This document shows positions 19,500-31,784 of a stretch of DNA of 34,960 nucleotides, one piece after another. The first letter of the stretch is position 1. Every line of letters starts with the position of its first letter. This DNA is from a virus: UHGV virus genome UHGV-0140617, one strand, 5' to 3'. Under the pieces are notes generated by a model. That model was not told the DNA's origin. It made no database searches and was given only the letters and a program-made list of their open reading frames with translations. The translations under genes and the position numbers were made by a program.

Positions 19500-19546
19500 T
19501 AAGCCCCCTCTTAATTGCTGTGAGTCCTCTCAGAAATGAGGGGAAT

Positions 19547-19571
19547 AAAAAAACCCGTTCGAATGAACGGG
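19547..19571 (-). terminator. Strong intrinsic terminator immediately upstream of the holin (minus strand)
   Basis: cccgtt(19554-19559)/aacggg(19566-19571) 6-bp stem followed on the minus strand by UUUUUUU (plus A7 19547-19553). Confidence 0.7.
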
Positions 19572-20290
19572 CCAGAAAAGGAGAATTTTGCATTACTGAA
19601 GCGTTAACGCGATGCCGGGTGCCTCCCGGTGGGCCTTTGGCTGACAAACCATGACCCGTGAGCACTTTGCATGTCACTCCCTGACATTGTTTACTGTCAG
19701 TTTCACCCCTCCGCTTAGGGGGATTCATCACAACAACTTCAAACGAGAGCTTTTACTGAATGCTCTTTAACATTAGGACCGATAAAGAAAACCTGCAAAC
19801 AAATAGCCCAATGATTTCAAAAGAGTCAGGCTTCACGGGCTGGATTTATCAACAAAGCACGCAGTGAGTGATACCCGTGAGCCTGAAATGAAAAAGGCCA
19901 CGCAAAAGCGCGGCCCTAAGAAGATATATATATTTTGTTAATTCAGCGGAACATCTGGCATGGAGCGATCCAGTGAAGCGTTAATCAACGCCTTAATCGC
20001 GTTACACACCTGATAAAATCCGCCAGGCTGAGATAATAGCCATTATACGATGACCACAGATATGTTGCTCCTGGTAAGATCAGTATATATGCTTGAGTCA
20101 ACATAGTATGTGGAACATAAGTTGCTGTAACTGGACGATACATCGCGCAGATGAGATTAATCACGAATCAAATTTGACATTTGAATCATGACGGTTAAAT
20201 CCGCCTCCCGGGCGTGGCCTGCGGATGTGCGAAGTACTGTACAGAGAGATCGCGCGCCCCAGGTGCAACTAATTAATCATGGGAGAGTTT

Positions 20291-20825: not shown

Positions 20826-21247
20826 GATATTAGCCTTTATATGCTACAACATTCACTACCGCAGTGATAACCAGAAGATATATTTTAACTAATAGTTCTT
20901 TTGGTTTTAGCATCAGATTGCAATTCACTTTAAAAGCAATAAAAATGAACATTTCTTATCTGCTTACATAGGGAATCTAAAATAATATAATTTCTTTATA
21001 TTATAACATCAGCGATTTTTGGGATGTTGTTAACTTTTACGAATGCACTTAAGCGTGCAAAAAAACTACAGAGGTAAACAGACAAATGACATTTATAAAA
21101 TAATCATTTCAACTGTTCTATCTAGTGATTAGACTCAGACATCTGTTCAGATCGGTTTGAGCAGATGTCGAGTTTCTGAAAAACCAATATATCTACTCAG
21201 GCTTTCACCGTCTTCGCTATCGTATATTGGCCTCAATCAGAAAAGTA

Positions 21248-21460
21248 TCAGGCAGCTACAACGTTTTCGGCTGACGGCCCTTTTGCACCAGCAGTGATGC
21301 TGAACTCAACTTTTTGGCCTTCATTCAGCGTTTTAAAACCACCACTCTGAATGGCAGAGAAGTGTACAAACACATCTTTACTACCGTTATCAGGGGTAAT
21401 AAAACCAAAACCTTTAGATTCATTAAACCATTTTACTAAACCAGTCATTTTATTAGACAC
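21248..21460 (-). CDS. Cold-shock protein, CspA family (prophage-borne paralog)
   Basis: 70 aa [38 protein letters not shown]... with RNP1/RNP2 motifs; ORF-track start is GTG (21458-21460), alternative ATG at 21446-21448. Confidence 0.9.
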
Positions 21461-21996
21461 AGGTATTTCCTTAAATTCTATGTAGCCTTACGGCGAAAAG
21501 GTTTTCGCACACAATCTAATTAGTAACGATAAGAAGGCTCAAAAGAAAGGATTATCTGTGGATAACGCTTGAGATGAGAACTGCTTTACTAAACCGCTTT
21601 AATGGGTCTGTGTACCTAACCAACCACTCATTAATCACACAACCCACAAACAATAGCAAGTTATTTTTTCATTAAATTGTTCGGAACATCTTAGAAATGG
21701 ATGCCGTGACAGCATAATCAGTGATTTTTCCCCTCGATAACATATGAGTGATCGCCTCTGTACGAGCAGAAACAGAATACATCAGTTTTATCAATCACCT
21801 ATAAAGAACATTCAACCACTCTGAAAAAATCCAGTAATGAGTTTTTTGTTCTATGCTTTCGTAGTCCATGGAATTGGTGGTAACAAAGGTAACCATTTCA
21901 TCCAACTCAAAAACAATATTTACAAAACTATGCTACTTTTATTTCATATATGTGTATTATTAGGTAAAGGAAATTAGAACTTTCAAAGGAGAAAAA

Positions 21997-25601: not shown

Positions 25602-26498
25602 TCACCAGTTGCAGTCTGTTTGTCCGTAATCCTGTTCACTGAAGCCAGATACCGGAAGCACATTGCGACGCCCACCTCCGGGAGCTGATGGAGTTTGCCA
25701 GGCTTCTTCGAAATGGCGATCGGGCCCAAAGAACGTTGCCGCCTGTTTGACGTATTCAGTACCAAGCTTGCCCGTCGTGCGGATGTAGGCCGCGTAGCGC
25801 TGCACGCCCGCCAGCAGCTCTGATGCCGTAGCGCCGTCGGCGATGCGAGCCTTCCAGTGTTTGTAAGCCGTTGCTTTCGGATTGCCACCAGCGCGTTTTG
25901 GGTATGCTTGCCAGGCGGCTTCGAACTCTGGAGAGTATTCCTGTCGCGCTGCTGGTTTCGTACCACTGGTTTTTCCAGATGATTTACCACTTCCGGAAAT
26001 GGCTGTCGGTGTAGCGGCGCCAGCCGATGCACCAAGAGTGTTTTTAATCTCTGTAGTAGTCTTTGTTGTAGTAACCATTAGAGAGCGGGCGTTTTTCCCC
26101 TCATCCATCGGTGCATCCTGCACTTGTCGATCAGGGCAACTTGCCCCGTTCGATGAGGGCACCTGTTCCGCATCATTAAGCAACTCGCAATCATGATTGA
26201 TGGTGTAGTAATTTGTCCGGTCATGTAGGGACTTATTGAGCTGCTCAACATCGAGACATCCCTGTTTGACGAGTGATGTAAAAGCGCGTTTAACTGTATC
26301 TGCTGACCAGAACGGGAATTGTTTTACCCACGACTCATAGCTGTTGAACACCCAGCGGCGACCAGCATGGATAACTCCCTGCTCTTTGTCGTTAATCCAG
26401 TAGTTAACCTGCTGCAATACGATCGCTTCGTTCAGACCGATGCGCATAGCAAGTTCAGGGTTGATGACCAGAGGGCGAAAATTAAAAAGCATGCTCAT
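25602..26498 (-). CDS. Replication initiator / replisome organiser (O-like)
   Basis: 298 aa; N-terminal replisome-organiser-like domain, low-complexity Thr/Ser/Gly linker, C-terminal domain; position upstream of the loader. Confidence 0.75.
   Translation of the reverse strand: MSMLFNFRPLVINPELAMRIGLNEAIVLQQVNYWINDKEQGVIHAGRRWVFNSYESWVKQFPFWSADTVKRAFTSLVKQGCLDVEQLNKSLHDRTNYYTINHDCELLNDAEQVPSSNGASCPDRQVQDAPMDEGKNARSLMVTTTKTTTEIKNTLGASAGAATPTAISGSGKSSGKTSGTKPAARQEYSPEFEAAWQAYPKRAGGNPKATAYKHWKARIADGATASELLAGVQRYAAYIRTTGKLGTEYVKQAATFFGPDRHFEEAWQTPSAPGGGRRNVLPVSGFSEQDYGQTDCNW
26098..26159. repeat. Iteron-like repeats (GATnAGGG) within the O-like gene - candidate origin
   Basis: tcgatcaggg (26127-26136) and tcgatgaggg (26150-26159) direct repeats 23 bp apart, inverted copy ccctcatcca (26098-26107), palindrome gtgcatcctgcac (26111-26123). 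Confidence 0.4.
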
Positions 26499-27379
26499 GC
26501 TGCACCCGCTAACTCAGTATCGTGAGTAAACTTGCCATCCCAGCGCTTCTTCATCGGAAGATGCCCCTTGAGATAGTGTCGATAAATCCATACCGCGCCT
26601 TTGCGCAGCAGGATTGGCTTGAAGGTGTCGCGCATCTCACCGTCGTCCTGTTCCACCTGCCCTGGCCGTTCGGTGAGGTATTGATCACGCGCATAGTGAT
26701 GAACCCGCCACAGTGGACGCCTGGCCTTTGGCTGGTCGTCGTAAAGCCAGTTATGATCAGCCAGAAACGCGTTAACCTGCTGGACGTTGACGCCGTTCAG
26801 TTGCTTACAGAACTGGCAAGGGGACATTCCCGGTTGGAACAGGTTTTCCAGGTGTTCGATGTACTGCGCCTGACGGTGAACGTATCCGATAGCTTTGTTC
26901 TTCGCTTCATACTCGTCCGCCCATGCGCGCGCAGCAGCCGCCGGGTCGTTGAAGTCTGGCAGACTGCTGCTGACTGGCGCCAGCTTGCCGGTACGGAAGT
27001 CGAGAAAGGTCTGGTTAACCTGCAAACGAAACGACGGTGAGATCCACCCGGCGTACTCGATGGCCAGCAGTTCGTGGGCGAACGTGCCCGGCGCAATGCC
27101 GCCATTCACGGTGTCGATTGGTTTTTGAGCAGAGTGTAAATTTACATTCTGGTTCTCTTTCAATAAATTACGCTTAAGCTCTTCAATGAGTTCTTTCGTG
27201 CTTTTTCGGCGTAACCATTGGCTCGGAGATTTATCCTCACCCGCTCCGCTCGCCTTGTGCAAAGCGTTCAGGTTAAATCGCCCGGCGGCATCCGTCGTGA
27301 TTTCAACGCCTGCAATAACAGGCAGGCTTTCAACATTAATGCTTGAAACGTTCGGATGTTTATTGGTATTGTTTTTCAT
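26495..27379 (-). CDS. KilA-N domain protein with antirepressor (ANT/KilAC)-like C-terminus
   Basis: About 294 aa from ATG 27377-27379 (MKNNTNKH...); KilA-N hallmark FNLNALHKASGAGEDKSPSQWLR. Confidence 0.7.
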   Translation of the reverse strand: MKNNTNKHPNVSSINVESLPVIAGVEITTDAAGRFNLNALHKASGAGEDKSPSQWLRRKSTKELIEELKRNLLKENQNVNLHSAQKPIDTVNGGIAPGTFAHELLAIEYAGWISPSFRLQVNQTFLDFRTGKLAPVSSSLPDFNDPAAAARAWADEYEAKNKAIGYVHRQAQYIEHLENLFQPGMSPCQFCKQLNGVNVQQVNAFLADHNWLYDDQPKARRPLWRVHHYARDQYLTERPGQVEQDDGEMRDTFKPILLRKGAVWIYRHYLKGHLPMKKRWDGKFTHDTELAGAA

Positions 27380-27398
27380 GGAATGATTCCTCGCAGTA

Positions 27399-27683
27399 TT
27401 ATTCCGCAGATATGCAAACGAAGTCAGAACAGGCCGGGTTGGCGCTCTCCGTTCCTTCCCGGCCTTTTCTTTGCCTTGCGTTCTGCTGTTGTCGTCTGCC
27501 CAATAGCCCACTGTCGCGCACGGAAAAGACAATCAGCGAACATGCTTCCCTTCCGGCTGGACTGAGAGCATCGCCGGTAATAATCAACACCATGCTCTGC
27601 CCCCCCCTGGCGACTTCTGCCGGAAAACCTTCGCCAGCCAGCGCCTCGGTGATGTGCTTTTTGATGAATTCTTCCGGTGACAT
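27399..27683 (-). CDS. Hypothetical protein in cII position (reading frame uncertain because of G8 tract)
   Basis: ATG 27681-27683 lies 1 nt after the cro stop (coupled); contains a G8 homopolymer (plus C8 at 27600-27607); downstream sequence is low complexity. Confidence 0.35.
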   Translation of the reverse strand: MSPEEFIKKHITEALAGEGFPAEVARGGQSMVLIITGDALSPAGREACSLIVFSVRDSGLLGRRQQQNARQRKGREGTESANPACSDFVCISAE

Positions 27684-27684
27684 G

Positions 27685-27900
27685 TCAAGCCTTTACTGAT
27701 GGGTGAGGGAAAATTTCTTCGATAAACACCTTCCGGTCTGACGTACTCAAAGCGGATGCGATGAGATGGCATGTCTCAATATCTGGAACTCTCCGACCAG
27801 ATTCGTAGTGACAAATGGAGCTTTGTGTATGGCCTATGCTCTTCGCCAGCTCGCATTGAGTTAACCCACTGGCAATACGCATATTTTTAAGATTACTCAT
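27685..27900 (-). CDS. cro: Cro-like HTH regulator
   Basis: 71 aa XRE-type helix-turn-helix (ASGLTQCELAKSIGHTQSSICHYESGRR); divergent from the repressor gene across an operator region. Confidence 0.75.
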   Translation of the reverse strand: MSNLKNMRIASGLTQCELAKSIGHTQSSICHYESGRRVPDIETCHLIASALSTSDRKVFIEEIFPHPSVKA

Positions 27901-27924
27901 TTTAATCCCCCGTTACTCAAGGAG

Positions 27925-28005
27925 ATATTACACATTGTATTTGAAATCAGCAAGAAAATATTACATTATGTGCATTGAAACTTTATCACATACTGTAATA
28001 TTATG
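27925..28005. promoter_or_regulatory. Immunity operator/promoter region (OR-like) with divergent promoters
   Basis: ATATTACA at 27925-27932 and 27958-27965, inverted TGTAATAT at 27994-28001; minus-strand promoter TTGCTG-N17-TAATAT (plus 27948-27953 / 27925-27930) for cro; plus-strand TTGAAA (27975-27980) and TATTAT/TAATAT near 27996-28004 for cI. Confidence 0.55.
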
Positions 28006-28010
28006 AGCCT

Positions 28011-28670
28011 ATGAAAACAGAATGGTATGAACTGGCTAAAGCCAGAATGTCTGAAGTGGGGGTTACGCAGGCCCAACTTTCAGAGGAATTGGGTGTTACA
28101 CAAGGTGCTTTGAGCCACTGGCTTAACGGCAGGAGATCGGCTTCGCTTGCTGAAATAGGTTCGATTTTTCGAATCCTTGGCATTGTTGGTGCAACCCTCA
28201 ACATAGATGGTTCATTCACCATCGGACCAGAGCAATTCTCGGCACCTCCTAAACCTCATTATGAATATCCTGTTTTCTCTCACGTTCAGGCAGGTATGTT
28301 TTCTCCAGAGTTCAGAACCTTTACAGAACGCGATGCAGAAGGCTGGGTCAGTACAACCAAAAAAGCCAGTGAACATGCATTCTGGCTTGAGGTTGATGGA
28401 CACTCCATGACAGCCCCAACCGGCTCAAGACCAAGCTTCCCAGCCGGAATGCTCATTCTTGTTGACCCTGAAGAACCAGTTGATCCTGGAGATTTCTGTA
28501 TCGCCAGACTTGGCGGGGATGAATTCACTTTTAAGAAATTGATTAAAGATAGTGGACAGGTCTTTCTTCAGCCGTTAAACCCACAGTTTCCAATGATACC
28601 CTGCAACGAGCATTGCAGAGTCGTTGGCAAGGTGGTCGCATCACAATGGCCTGAAGAGACATTCGGATAA
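28011..28670 (+). CDS. cI: CI-like repressor (HTH plus S24 LexA-like peptidase domain)
   Basis: 219 aa; N-terminal HTH ([23 protein letters not shown]), Ala-Gly cleavage site (VQAGMF), catalytic Ser (VDGHSMT) and Lys (FKKL); no SD upstream, consistent with a leaderless transcript. Confidence 0.85.
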
Positions 28671-28692
28671 AACATTCTGTAAAATACTCACT

Positions 28693-28716
28693 CCCGGCTT
28701 ATGCCGGGATTTTTTT
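28693..28716 (+). terminator. Intrinsic terminator after cI
   Basis: cccggc(28693-28698) ttat gccggg(28703-28708) followed by T-run (atttttttgt). Confidence 0.8.
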
Positions 28717-28798
28717 GTCTGAATATCAATACCACTAATTAAATACACTTTGAAATCAAACGCTTTCAATTAATAATCAAATTTTATTTCATTTTGTA

Positions 28799-28827
28799 TA
28801 GACATAGTCAATTACGTTTTGTAATAT
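28799..28827 (+). promoter_or_regulatory. Putative early-left promoter with overlapping operator
   Basis: TAGACA (28799-28804)-N17-TAATAT (28822-28827); palindrome ATTAC-N5-GTAAT at 28811-28825 containing TGTAATAT, the same 8-mer as in the cI-cro operator region. Confidence 0.45.
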
Positions 28828-28858: not shown

Positions 28859-29152
28859 ATGAACATAACCTCCCAACCAAACCCAGCAAGCCAGGAATTT
28901 GATATTCACGCCAAGCTTAGATCAGCTAATTCGCACTGGCCTTATTGCTATGCTGTCCAGCATTTCGAGAAAGAATTTAATTACCAATTTAATACAAGTT
29001 TTGTTGACGAAATGGAGTTCGCTGTTTACGAACGTATCGATAATTATTTCGTTTTGGTTGATTTCTTTAAGTCATACGATGAAGCATGTGATGATGCTAA
29101 AAAAATCATTGATGACCACCCTGATCTTAAAAAAATGTTCCCTGCTATTTAA
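28859..29152 (+). CDS. Hypothetical acidic protein (first gene of early-left operon)
   Basis: 97 aa; SD ACGGAG 9 nt upstream; no recognisable motif. Confidence 0.5.
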   Translation: MNITSQPNPASQEFDIHAKLRSANSHWPYCYAVQHFEKEFNYQFNTSFVDEMEFAVYERIDNYFVLVDFFKSYDEACDDAKKIIDDHPDLKKMFPAI

Positions 29153-29223
29153 TTAAACCATTAATTAACAAAAAACATCATAAATAACACCTTAACCGGT
29201 GGGGAACAACTCACCCTGAGGAA

Positions 29224-29520
29224 ATGCAGATGAATATTACCGTCAAAAGTGAAGTCTTAAATAACAAGAGCCATTCAGTTAATCAGGATGACGACATTCT
29301 TTATATAAACAAGGCACACAAAACAGCAGAGTGCGCCAATAAATACGCGCATGAGCTACGTACAGAGTTTTTCCAGTTACTGATGCCAGCAATCACGCGT
29401 ACAGATGTGAAGGTAGCAGGAAGATTCACCTCGTTACTTAATGAGCTTTGCTTCATGACCCAAATGACCATGGAGAATTCATCCAAGGGGGGGGGCAATA
29501 ATGACGTTTCTGAAAGATAA
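29224..29520 (+). CDS. Hypothetical protein, apparently truncated at a G9 tract
   Basis: 98 aa as sequenced; with 8 G instead of 9 (29487-29495) the frame continues to TAA 29612-29614, overlapping the next ATG (TAATG). Confidence 0.45.
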   Translation: MQMNITVKSEVLNNKSHSVNQDDDILYINKAHKTAECANKYAHELRTEFFQLLMPAITRTDVKVAGRFTSLLNELCFMTQMTMENSSKGGGNNDVSER

Positions 29521-29613
29521 AGCAGCACACAATACTGCAAAACTTTTTGCCTCTTATGGAAATAGTTATCTGCATATTGCAAACCTTTTTCTGCGCAAGG
29601 CTTACGGGCGGTA

Positions 29614-29976
29614 ATGACAATGAAAAACAATACCATTGAAATTTATCGCCGCCGCGTTGCTATTGCGACATTAAACCGAATGAAGCGCAAGACAGGAGGT
29701 TATTGCCTCTCCGTAAATATGCCCGATAACAATATCCAGGTTATCGAGATTAACGAAGAATCAATGATGAAACTTTTGCTGCGCTTCGAAAAACAGGCTC
29801 GGACTGAATTCAACACAGAAGCGGAAACATTTCTTCGCCAGACGTATATGAAAAGCGTCGATATCAATGAACACACCGAATATCTGACCGAAACCGGAAA
29901 GATGATTGTTGACGAGATTTTTGCGGAATTAATTAAACACGCGAAAGAGAAATACGTATGTGGAGGAATTAACTGA
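29614..29976 (+). CDS. Hypothetical protein
   Basis: 120 aa; stop overlaps next ATG (TGATG). Confidence 0.5.
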   Translation: MTMKNNTIEIYRRRVAIATLNRMKRKTGGYCLSVNMPDNNIQVIEINEESMMKLLLRFEKQARTEFNTEAETFLRQTYMKSVDINEHTEYLTETGKMIVDEIFAELIKHAKEKYVCGGIN

Positions 29977-30205
29977 TGGCCTCACAACAAACAATTATTC
30001 ACGGAATGCAGACCCCCCCCCAGTCCTCAACGTGGATCTGCATGTGCTTCCGGATTTCACCGGACGCGTGGTTCTTTACATCGAAAAAGGGCGTGTGACA
30101 TGCGACCGCCGTCTGCTCGACGACGAACATATTTGCGCACTGGACACTTTTATCGAAATGGCTCGCGAAATGGAGCTACGTCTTGAGGAAATATCGAATG
30201 ACTGA
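29976..30205 (+). pseudogene. Hypothetical gene interrupted by frameshift at C9 tract
   Basis: ATG 29976 with SD GGAGG reads MASQQTIIHGMQTPP then shifts frame at C9 (30013-30021); the downstream frame (...VLNVDLHV...EEISND) ends ATGACTGA-coupled to the next gene; 10 C would restore one ORF of about 76 aa. Confidence 0.5.
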
Positions 30206-30620
30206 CAACCGTACCGTAAGCGCGATTGACCTCGCGTTACAGAAACACGATACGCCAGTTGGCCCTTTGTTCGTGGCAGTACGACACGGGCGCACAAAAA
30301 AATGTTTCACCCTCAACACTGCAATCCGTTATCTGGCGTTCTTCATGACTACCGAAGCTTTCAGTCGTTCCGGCTTCGAGCAGCGCTACCCGGATGTGCA
30401 GACCGTCTACCCTCTCAATCCAGAACTGAATTGTTGGCAACGAGGAGGCACAACAGTTGAGTACATCGGAGCCCACCAGCGCTGTATTCGACGTCTTCGC
30501 CGCATTCTGGCCATTAAGCGTGACATGCAGAAGTGGTGTGAGAAGTGGGACGCCATGCATGACCGCTTCGTTAAAGAGGTTGACGCACTACAGGCCAGTA
30601 AACCGGAGGGTATTCGATGA
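30198..30620 (+). CDS. Hypothetical protein
   Basis: 140 aa from ATG 30198 (MTDNRTV...); the track ORF starts earlier at TTG. Confidence 0.5.
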   Translation: MTDNRTVSAIDLALQKHDTPVGPLFVAVRHGRTKKCFTLNTAIRYLAFFMTTEAFSRSGFEQRYPDVQTVYPLNPELNCWQRGGTTVEYIGAHQRCIRRLRRILAIKRDMQKWCEKWDAMHDRFVKEVDALQASKPEGIR

Positions 30621-31195
30621 GCAGCAATAACGAAGCGCCAGAAACTACGCCAAACGGCATCAAAATCGGAAATCGCGTTATTGGCTGGTCTGGTGCGGTT
30701 AAACAATTCGATGGTCCACGCTTTGACTCCCGCAACTCAGAGGGTCTGCGTTGGTTGGCCTGCATTATGGATGCAGTTGCAGCTGGTTGGATTTCTTTAG
30801 GCACAGAGAAAGAACTCATTCTATGGCGCTGGCTGGTAGCAACGGTATTCATCAATGAAGAGAAGGATAAGAACGGCGCTATCGAAATCCCGAACGAAGA
30901 CGGCGGCGTTGATATCGCGGTCATTTACTCGGGTAAGAAAGGCGACCTGAGCATCTACCCCGGCCCGCTGCGCTTTTCTCTAGCTAACCATGTTGAAGGT
31001 ATCGCGATCGAGAAATACGGCGCTGAGGAAGGTCCAGCGCTGGCGCTGCGCATGTACAAGGACATGGTGATTGCAGATCCCGGGTATGGATTCAGGATGT
31101 CCCCTTTTGGGCGCGAGGGGCTTGAGATACTTCACGATGACTGCATCGGAATGATCAACACCAACGGCATGCCAGAAGCGCATGTGATTCACTAA
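30617..31195 (+). CDS. Hypothetical protein
   Basis: 192 aa, no recognised motif; ATGA-coupled to the upstream gene. Confidence 0.5.
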   Translation: MSSNNEAPETTPNGIKIGNRVIGWSGAVKQFDGPRFDSRNSEGLRWLACIMDAVAAGWISLGTEKELILWRWLVATVFINEEKDKNGAIEIPNEDGGVDIAVIYSGKKGDLSIYPGPLRFSLANHVEGIAIEKYGAEEGPALALRMYKDMVIADPGYGFRMSPFGREGLEILHDDCIGMINTNGMPEAHVIH

Positions 31196-31205
31196 GGAGA
31201 AAGCC

Positions 31206-31784
31206 ATGTTTATTTATACCGATCTGCTCCGAGCCGCTATGTGCTGCACTGCCAGTCAGGAAGACACCCGGAAAATCCTGAGAGGTGTACGCCTCACGCC
31301 AACTCATATTCAGGCAACGAATGGTATTGCTGCAGTTTCAATGAAGCATGATGCCAAAACAGAAATGGAAGGCGTATTTATCCTGCACGGTGATATTCCG
31401 ACTAACGCAGAAGGAACCGTATTCCAGCAAATTGGTAGCCAGTGGATTGCTGCTCATATGGACGACTACGAGCGCCCGGTTGGGCATAACGAGCTTGAAC
31501 TGGTTGAAGGCAAGTTTCCAGATCTTAGCAAGCTGCTGCCGACAGAGGAAGAGCCGTGTGCTGAGTTCCCTCCTTTCGCTGCTGAATTGCTTGCTTTGCC
31601 TTATCGCATGTTTGGTAATGAATTTGCGTCAATGCCCGTTAATTTCAAACTCTTTGGCCCTGAAAAACCATGTCAGGTACTGTTTAACGTTGCTGTTAAC
31701 AGCTTCTACGGCGATCCGGTGCTGGTAATCATGCCGATGAAATCGACGGTGTTCGAACTGCACCGTAAGGCGATGGAAGAATGA
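31206..31784 (+). CDS. Hypothetical protein with possible beta-clamp (DnaN)-like domain
   Basis: 192 aa; C-terminal PVLVIMPMK resembles the DnaN C-terminal VVMPMR motif and ILRGVRL...IQATNG resembles a clamp-domain segment; similarity recalled from memory, not computed. Confidence 0.45.
   Translation: MFIYTDLLRAAMCCTASQEDTRKILRGVRLTPTHIQATNGIAAVSMKHDAKTEMEGVFILHGDIPTNAEGTVFQQIGSQWIAAHMDDYERPVGHNELELVEGKFPDLSKLLPTEEEPCAEFPPFAAELLALPYRMFGNEFASMPVNFKLFGPEKPCQVLFNVAVNSFYGDPVLVIMPMKSTVFELHRKAMEE

Follow-up and report, generated by a model that had tools for sequence, protein, structure and literature searches.

Predicted operators at the immunity switch of an uncharacterized lambdoid prophage and their relation to the repressor recognition helix

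Operators differ in length and layout among the well-studied temperate phages: successive sites are spaced by 24 and 23 bp at OR and by 24 and 20 bp at OL in lambda, the 434 operator spans 14 bp (ACAA-N6-TTGT) and the P22 operator 18 bp. The OR1 site of lambda reads T-ATCAC-CGCCA-GTGGT-A (PMC5977221). For the Salmonella phage epsilon34, an operator consensus, WTACRAWWTGTAT, was predicted by its authors upstream of PL and PR, and L, VT2-Sa and Nil2 were named as the phages with the closest DNA-binding domains (PMC2629481). The database record of the Shiga toxin (Stx) 1 phage AP005153 annotates six 17-bp 'putative operators', spaced by 32/26 bp at OR and 33/25 bp at OL. The Nil2 papers contain no operator data. 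Lambda CI has been assayed on VT2-Sa and Stx2 I sites by electrophoretic mobility shift (PMC10742460), which gives no footprint for this family because the repressor was non-cognate and was used at micromolar concentrations. The repressors of 933W and BAA2326 belong to other DNA-binding families (PMC5977221) and do not apply here. Here we describe the immunity region of the UHGV virus genome UHGV-0140617 (34,960 nucleotides, analyzed at full length and called the window below), in which the 8-mer ATATTACA recurs in the gap between divergent cro-like and cI-like genes and again ahead of the early-left genes. These four copies very probably form the strong halves of operator sites in an immunity switch of the lambdoid type.

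The 8-mer or its reverse complement occupies 27925-27932 and 27958-27965 (plus strand) and 27994-28001 and 28820-28827 (minus strand). The first three copies lie in the 110-bp cro-cI gap (27901-28010), bounded by divergent genes on both sides, just as the original prediction had placed them; the fourth lies shortly ahead of the first early-left gene, and the rest of the window contains none, all four being confined to 0.9 kb. Over 100 dinucleotide-preserving shuffles, the 8-mer averaged 0.69 occurrences with a maximum of three (0/100 reached four), and the observed count thus exceeds the shuffled maximum. Each copy forms the outer and more strongly conserved half of a dyad of 15-17 bp, ATTAC-N5-GTAAT, and this dyad rather than the 8-mer is the functional unit. 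The three OR sites (Table 1) each combine one consensus half with one deviant half, a feature they have in common with lambda operators. The perfect dyad has a single instance in the window, which contains the fourth 8-mer copy and lies within the promoter-like TAGACA-17-TAATAT at 28799-28827; the earlier statement that a perfect palindrome overlaps the early-left promoter therefore stands. When ~35,000 window positions were scored with a position weight matrix (PWM) built from other loci, with the window left out, OR1, OR2, OR3 and OL1 took ranks 1-4 (18.8-22.9 bits, compared with a mean best score of 11.2 bits in random sequence), and the candidate sites OL3 and OL2 ranks 6 and 7.

Three further candidates were considered and rejected. 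The site at 28669-28683 (AAAACattctGTAAA), which coincides with the cI stop codon and takes PWM rank 5, and that at 27892-27906 (ATTACTCATTTTAAT), which spans the cro start codon and has one mismatch, are unconserved in relatives. The 10-mer TTTGAAATCA (at 27940 and 28749) is conserved at OL, where it forms part of OL3, and not at OR, and was dropped as an independent element.

The conservation of the sites was followed in 94 related loci, 21 with the recognition helix of the window repressor (TQGALSHW, once SQGALSHW) and 73 with other helices (~3 kb each). These relatives were gathered with the full-length repressor as query, the N-terminal domain alone having returned one fragment; footprints were drawn from 8 and then 16 non-redundant same-helix loci, and the lattice of site positions from 60 non-redundant loci. 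Among the same-helix loci, intergenic DNA, spacers and flanks have diverged and the dyads are retained as conserved islands. The outer half of OR1 (left), OR2 and OR3 (right) is ATTAC in 16/16 non-redundant OR regions, the block AAATATTACAnTATGTGCATTGAA at OR2 is invariant in alignment A2, and the perfect OL1 dyad occupies the same position in 18 of the 21 loci. Site centers lie at -77/-44/-19 from the cI ATG in the window type, with OR2 at -44 in every same-helix locus; the other classes have theirs at -74 to -78, -42 to -43 and -16 to -19. One locus (L010), whose DNA-binding domain is 58% identical and carries the same helix, has ATTAC half-sites at the same offsets.

The motif also follows the repressor. 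Extending the motif search to related immunity regions recovered the 8-mer in 21/21 TQGALSHW loci, always at operator positions, and in 0/73 loci with other helices. In the window class, the CI helix TQGALSHW and the Cro helix TQ(S/G)S(I/V)CHY accompany the half-site ATTAC. The CI helix TQGAMGHW (Cro, T(P/V/A)SS(V/I)GHY) accompanies TGTAC, TQGGIGHW (Cro, TQGAIGHW) and TQGGVGHW both accompany A(A/G)TAC, and TKGAVSHW (Cro, TRGAVCHY) accompanies (T/G/A)ATAC, the Cro helices varying in parallel with those of CI across the classes. Among half-sites that are not constrained by PRM, 'AT' occupies positions 1-2 in 48/64 of the window class and in 0/176 of the four other classes, while the core T3-A4-C5-A6 is common to the family (C5 in 130/130 half-sites). 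Specificity would thus reside in half-site positions 1-2, the inner TACA being shared with other immunity types. The original prediction that the 8-mer sets immunity specificity holds insofar as the motif tracks the helix class; the unit has to be redrawn as the dyad, with the discriminating positions narrowed to the first two. Of the computational evidence that the motif defines immunity specificity, the helix covariation is the strongest, and the remaining in silico tests (genes, conserved dyads and PWM) agree with it in pointing to OR and OL operators of the CI-like repressor and of Cro.

Binding of CI to the dyads being a prediction, they might instead be occupied by Cro alone, by a KilA-N/ANT protein (26495-27382) or by a host factor, with CI binding elsewhere. 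Cro does possess its own helix-turn-helix with a similar but not identical recognition helix, and the KilA-N/ANT gene sits in the PR operon. Against this, half-site changes track the CI helix across five classes, the sites stand where CI would canonically act on PR, PRM and PL, and no other conserved dyad family was found in either gap. We regard such an assignment as improbable; binding of Cro to the same sites belongs to the CI-operator model itself and does not compete with it.

Promoter function offers a second way to account for the recurrence, in which the 8-mer, read as TGTAATAT (TG followed by the -10 hexamer TAATAT), would be a promoter module shared by PR, PRM and PL and not a repressor site. 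Three of the four copies do coincide with predicted -10 hexamers of these promoters; the copies at 27925 (PR) and 27994 (PRM) overlap the two divergent -10 elements, as had been proposed, and that at 27958 overlaps no convincing one. Furthermore, the equivalent hexamer keeps the -10 form TAnnnT in every immunity type; for PR it corresponds to half-site positions 4 to -2 on the other strand and reads TAATAT, TACATT, TATTTT or TATACT according to class. For the OR2 copy, however, neither strand offers an acceptable -35 at a distance of 16-18 nt, and yet no block is more strictly conserved. Each copy is paired, across exactly N5, with a dyad partner that is conserved in relatives, and the variable hexamer positions follow the CI/Cro helix, which is unexpected for a pure sigma-70 element. 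A promoter module without repressor binding is accordingly slightly less credible still than another regulator, and the likeliest arrangement is that operator half-sites are embedded in -10 elements and serve both functions at once. As a third possibility, an AT-rich word might have recurred by chance, in favor of which one could cite the AT-richness of both gaps and the window-wide excess of loose dyad matches, which is no more than ~2-fold (≤2 mismatches; 22 observed, 11.3 expected). This reading is effectively refuted by the shuffles, the PWM ranks and the locus survey, in which the clustered copies are retained at equivalent places in 21 loci and are missing from the 73 with other helices.

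Table 1. Features of the switch region, with positions counted from the first base of the window; scores in bits are PWM scores, and promoters are predicted.
Feature	Position	Strand	Description
OR1	27927-27941		ATTACacattGTATT; consensus half ATATTACA at 27925-27932; over PR -10 and spacer; 18.8 bits
OR2	27960-27974		ATTACattatGTGCA; consensus half ATATTACA at 27958-27965; 21.5 bits
OR3	27985-27999		ATCACatactGTAAT; consensus half TGTAATAT at 27994-28001; over PRM spacer and -10; 22.9 bits
OL1	28811-28825		ATTACgttttGTAAT; perfect dyad; over PL spacer and -10; 8-mer as TGTAATAT at 28820-28827; 21.5 bits
Candidate OL2	28786-28800		ATTTCattttGTATA; 25 bp from OL1, upstream; abuts or overlaps PL -35; 9.0 bits
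Candidate OL3	28742-28756		AATACactttGAAAT; weak dyad; 44 bp beyond OL2, upstream; 10.2 bits
PR (cro)	27925-27953	-	-35 TTGCTG (27953 to 27948), 17-nt spacer, -10 TAATAT (27930 to 27925); read by eye
PRM (cI)	27975-28004	+	-35 TTGAAA (27975-27980), 18-nt spacer, -10 TATTAT (27999-28004)
PL (early-left)	28799-28827	+	-35 TAGACA (28799-28804), 17-nt spacer, -10 TAATAT (28822-28827); consensus scan 9/12
cI intrinsic terminator	28692-28716	+	7-bp GC-rich stem, then seven T; -23 kcal/mol, z-score -6.1
cro-like gene	27685-27900	-	71 aa; Pfam HTH_3, E 2e-11
cI-like repressor gene	28011-28670	+	219 aa; Pfam HTH_3 and Peptidase_S24
First early-left gene	28859-29152	+	97 aa, acidic; first gene downstream of PL

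The predicted promoters fit the operator positions. PR would start transcription near 27917-27919, and the TTG of its -35 and the TAnnnT of its -10 are conserved in relatives. In the consensus scan, no promoter-like site of the region scored higher than PRM (10/12 positions), whose -10 may alternatively be read as TAATAT at 27996-28001. OR2 directly adjoins the PRM -35 and, on the upstream side of the PR -35, is 4-6 bp away from it, so that OR1 and OR2 flank the PR -35 without covering it; the center-to-center spacing is 33 bp for OR1-OR2 and 25 bp for OR2-OR3. Because the PRM -10 ends 6 nt ahead of the cI ATG and no Shine-Dalgarno sequence is evident, the cI maintenance mRNA is probably leaderless, as is that from lambda PRM; a -10-like hexamer ends 5-8 nt ahead of the ATG in 51/51 non-redundant family members scored. 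An alternative PRM (TTGAAA at 27941, 17-nt spacer, CATTAT) was rejected because its -35 is loosely conserved, whereas GCATTGAA beside OR2 is invariant. No cII-type TTGC-N6-TTGC box occurs in 27301-28700, and an Rfam scan of the switch region returned no family match. OR2 and OR3 are mirror-image sites that together make up a 16-nt inverted repeat (27957-28002; 94% complementary) centered on the PRM -35, and the orientation of weak and strong halves of neighboring operators is likewise mirror-symmetric.

From the sequence and its relatives we infer binding, promoter starts, activation, cooperativity and induction as follows. The CI-like repressor would bind as a dimer, through its Cro/C1-type helix-turn-helix, to the 15-17 bp dyads (AT)ATTAC-N5-GTAAT(AT), and Cro would bind the same dyads. 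Repressor on OR1 would cover the PR -10 and spacer and keep cro and the lytic operon off. On OR2, centered at -44 beside the PRM -35, it could stimulate transcription of its own gene, as lambda CI does. OR3, over the PRM -10, would serve negative autoregulation or the shut-off of cI by Cro, and OL1, OL2 and OL3 would together repress the early-left operon. Cooperative binding, possibly with OL-OR looping over ~0.85 kb, and RecA-stimulated autocleavage are expected because the C-terminal domain is ~86% identical to that of lambda CI, with the Ala-Gly site and the Ser/Lys dyad kept.

Several observations weigh against this model. A search of the literature found no cognate footprint, binding assay or transcript map for the repressor or any close relative. 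The PR -35 (TTGCTG) matches three of six consensus positions and falls below the consensus-scan threshold, and both OL2 and OL3 score under the random-sequence mean best of 11.2 bits. As three of the four 8-mers overlie -10 hexamers, their conservation partly reflects promoter function; it is not due to the repressor alone, because the outer ATAT doubles as the promoter -10 hexamer. The compared loci are related, so that the covariation amounts to ~5 independent helix classes and not to 94 observations. Finally, because the OR1-OR2 spacing is 33 bp, compared with 24 bp in lambda, lambda-style pairwise cooperativity between these two sites is an assumption.

At the other end of the switch, OL probably holds three sites, with OL2 and OL3 the weaker ones, as judged from position and conservation rather than score. 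The original prediction was correct about OL1 but had described a single early-left operator. OL2 and OL3 keep fixed distances from OL1 in 15/16 non-redundant same-helix loci (OL3 consensus, AATACnnTTTGnAATCA), and the homologous positions in other immunity types are good matches to the half-sites of those types. OL3 and OL2 also form a 27-nt inverted repeat (28734-28808; 70% complementary) and are mirror images. A strong intrinsic terminator ends cI, its stem kept in relatives through compensatory changes, and the downstream promoter must therefore be independent. The PL promoter-like site lies 30 nt upstream of the first early-left open reading frame (ORF), and its blocks TTTTGTATAGAC and TGTAATAT are conserved in relatives; a promoter-like TTGAAA-16-AATAAT at 28750-28777 was rejected because its -10 is not conserved in the related locus L008.

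Two observations from related loci concern OL. In one same-helix locus (IMGVR_UViG_2540341226_000005, L022), the only such case, OR is intact but no OL1-3 is found within 330 bp after cI; the different DNA that follows the repressor gene points to an insertion or mosaic junction there. In four TQGAMGHW loci, L012, L013, L027 (2230-2244) and L033 (2228-2242), a perfect window-type dyad, ATTACatcatGTAAT, lies 33 bp upstream of their OL3 on the same lattice. It could be a fourth OL site, either tolerated by their own repressor or targeted by a window-type repressor.

The overall arrangement is that of lambda. The gene order (cro, leftward from PR/OR/PRM; then cI, terminator and OL/PL, rightward into the early-left genes) is the same, with divergent cI and cro and two sets of three dyads, one in the gap and the other beyond cI. 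As in lambda, OR2 stands beside the PRM -35, the PR and PL -10s lie under the strongest sites, and the PRM -10 is set for a leaderless cI mRNA. The odd-length 5-N5-5 frame is shared too: ATCAC-N5-GTGAT in lambda and ATTAC-N5-GTAAT in the window differ at one half-site position, and the left half of the window OR3 is literally ATCAC. Differences include the spacing, which in the window is 33 + 25 bp (OR) and 25 + 44 bp (OL), the lack of overlap between OR2 and the PR -35, and the absence of an N-like gene after PL. OL and OR are only ~0.85 kb apart in the window because there are no rexAB genes.

The repressor itself joins a lambda-like C-terminal domain to a different DNA-binding domain. Residues 84-219 are ~86% identical to the lambda CI C-terminal domain (counted from the alignment; 3bdn, 8gmu), with the cleavage site A94-G95 and the catalytic residues Ser132 and Lys175 conserved. 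Unlike that of lambda CI, the N-terminal domain is modeled as a Cro/C1-type (HTH_3) helix-turn-helix. The AlphaFold model places helix 2 at residues 20-27 and the recognition helix, QGALSHWL, at 31-38, with a predicted local distance difference test score of ~90. Superposition of the domain on XRE domains, among them those of P22 c2 and the 434 repressor, gives 1.0-2.2 Å. The N-terminus is 12-13 residues shorter in the alignment, and window CI therefore lacks the residues of the lambda N-terminal arm. Across the family, this domain is 50-86% identical over residues 1-90, with Q20, H36, W37 and R42 invariant; E25 is invariant as well, and Q31 is found in all classes but one.

When lambda CI is bound to its operator, Q44 contacts the outer adenine, S45 recognizes the G opposite the C that the window half-site replaces with T, and N55 recognizes the G opposite the invariant C; D38 belongs to the positive-control patch. 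The HMMER alignment to lambda CI pairs these residues with Q31, G32, R42 and E25, respectively. By this equivalence Q31, R42 and E25 may have the corresponding contacts or roles, and the replacement of lambda Ser45 by Gly32 would fit the C-to-T change at the equivalent operator position. Residue-base contacts remain inferential because a Foldseek search of the PDB gave generic Cro/C1 folds and no close DNA complex.

Among described phages, the group of Stx1 phage AP005153, Stx2 phage II, Nil2, YYZ-2008, 2851 and 1717 (CI helix TQGGIGHW) has a CI of the same length with 73% identity, an OR gap of 110-111 bp, TAC-N5-GTA cores and an identical OR2 right half, GTGCA, beside the PRM -35. It differs in its half-site, A(A/G)TAC (T at position 2 in 0/56 free half-sites), in its recognition helix (at 3/8 positions) and in having N after OL, and there is no megablast-level DNA similarity. 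Given the half-site and helix differences, the window prophage is predicted to be heteroimmune to the Stx1/Nil2 group. The Salmonella phages epsilon34 and vB_SosS_Oslo (TKGAVSHW) share the same three-site lattice, with the Oslo CI 74% identical. In contrast to the window, their half-site is (T/G/A)ATAC, the second helix position is Lys in CI and Arg in Cro instead of Gln, and their operators, too, are predicted. Oslo relatives carry N after OL, unlike the window. The 434 and P22 c2 repressors have the same Cro/C1 fold (rmsd, the root-mean-square deviation, 1.2-2.2 Å over 51-54 residues), and in 434, as here, repressor and Cro have similar recognition helices starting T-Q; their operators are nevertheless unrelated in sequence and length, and their C-terminal domains are not lambda-like.

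No described phage shares both the recognition helix and the preferred half-site of the window, the combination TQGALSHW and ATTAC having been seen only in uncharacterized prophages and viral contigs. The best CI identity in the phage collection is 74%, and the TQGALSHW class is unrepresented there. Megablast of the 1.3-kb switch gave no match in the phage and complete E. coli collections. A scan of genome contigs found a 98.5%-identical switch copy in one Citrobacter freundii metagenome-assembled genome (MAG), and the helix itself occurs in Enterobacter, Kluyvera, Citrobacter koseri and viral contigs. By comparison of sequences, the TQGALSHW/ATTAC class is a previously undescribed repressor/operator specificity within a family whose operators are predicted. 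The result thereby defines the probable operators, promoters and immunity determinant of an uncharacterized lambdoid prophage type in Citrobacter, Enterobacter and Kluyvera. The wider repressor family includes clinically relevant Stx1/Stx2 phages, and small changes in the CI/Cro helices track two operator positions, which makes these loci compact, testable natural specificity variants for heteroimmunity prediction or for orthogonal repressor-operator pairs. General understanding of such switches is unchanged, the locus being a textbook lambdoid switch.

A bolder reading would combine a switch wired unlike that of lambda, a natural recognition-code series, in which each of five CI and Cro helix classes is paired with a change at half-site positions 1-2, and an undescribed immunity heteroimmune to the Stx-phage class. 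Lambda-like spacing of 24-25 bp falls at OR2-OR3, flanking the PRM -35, and at OL1-OL2; cooperativity might accordingly favor OR2-OR3, with PR repressed through OR1 alone or through a short (~0.85 kb) OL-OR loop. We consider this combination rather doubtful as a whole.

The recognition helix of the cro-like gene product, TQSSICHY, is similar, or paralogous, to that of CI, and the protein matched 434 repressor weakly and also matched 28tn ('lambda repressor-like protein'). Beyond cro, the PR operon contains the KilA-N/ANT gene, replication genes (O-like, DnaC-like and DnaB) and morphogenesis genes. The KilA-N/ANT protein (minus strand) is of the antirepressor type and is encoded between the cro-proximal ORF and the replication genes; in relatives this position is held by unrelated genes (DUF4222 in L004, others elsewhere). 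On the early-left side, the first protein has no Pfam or PHROG match, and in L004 and L012, too, OL is followed by this 97-aa gene. Pfam and PHROG scans found no recognizable N antiterminator gene after PL. The early-left operon extends over 28859-31784 (plus strand); several of its downstream genes match PHROGs of unknown function, and the gene at 31206-31784 matches a family annotated as RusA-like resolvase.

Three long G/C homopolymer runs lie in the region, C8 at 27600-27607, G9 at 29487-29495 and C9 at 30013-30021, of which two differ in length in the C. freundii MAG (L003). The change from C8 in the window to C7 shifts the frame of the ORF just past cro (94 aa and 32 aa, respectively), which PHROG 4439 matches at residues 1-28 only, up to the run; that from G9 to G10 shifts the frame of ORF 29224 (98 aa and 130 aa). 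These length differences may be either sequencing or assembly errors or slippage-prone tracts. Elsewhere in the prophage, a full-length match to the cspA thermoregulator 5' untranslated region (Rfam RF01766, 200.9 bits) at 21176-21624 (minus strand) suggests that the phage carries a cold-shock protein gene together with the leader that regulates it, and 19542-19759 (minus strand) matches the gammaproteobacterial small RNA STnc100 (RF02076, 76.8 bits, with a gathering score of 47).

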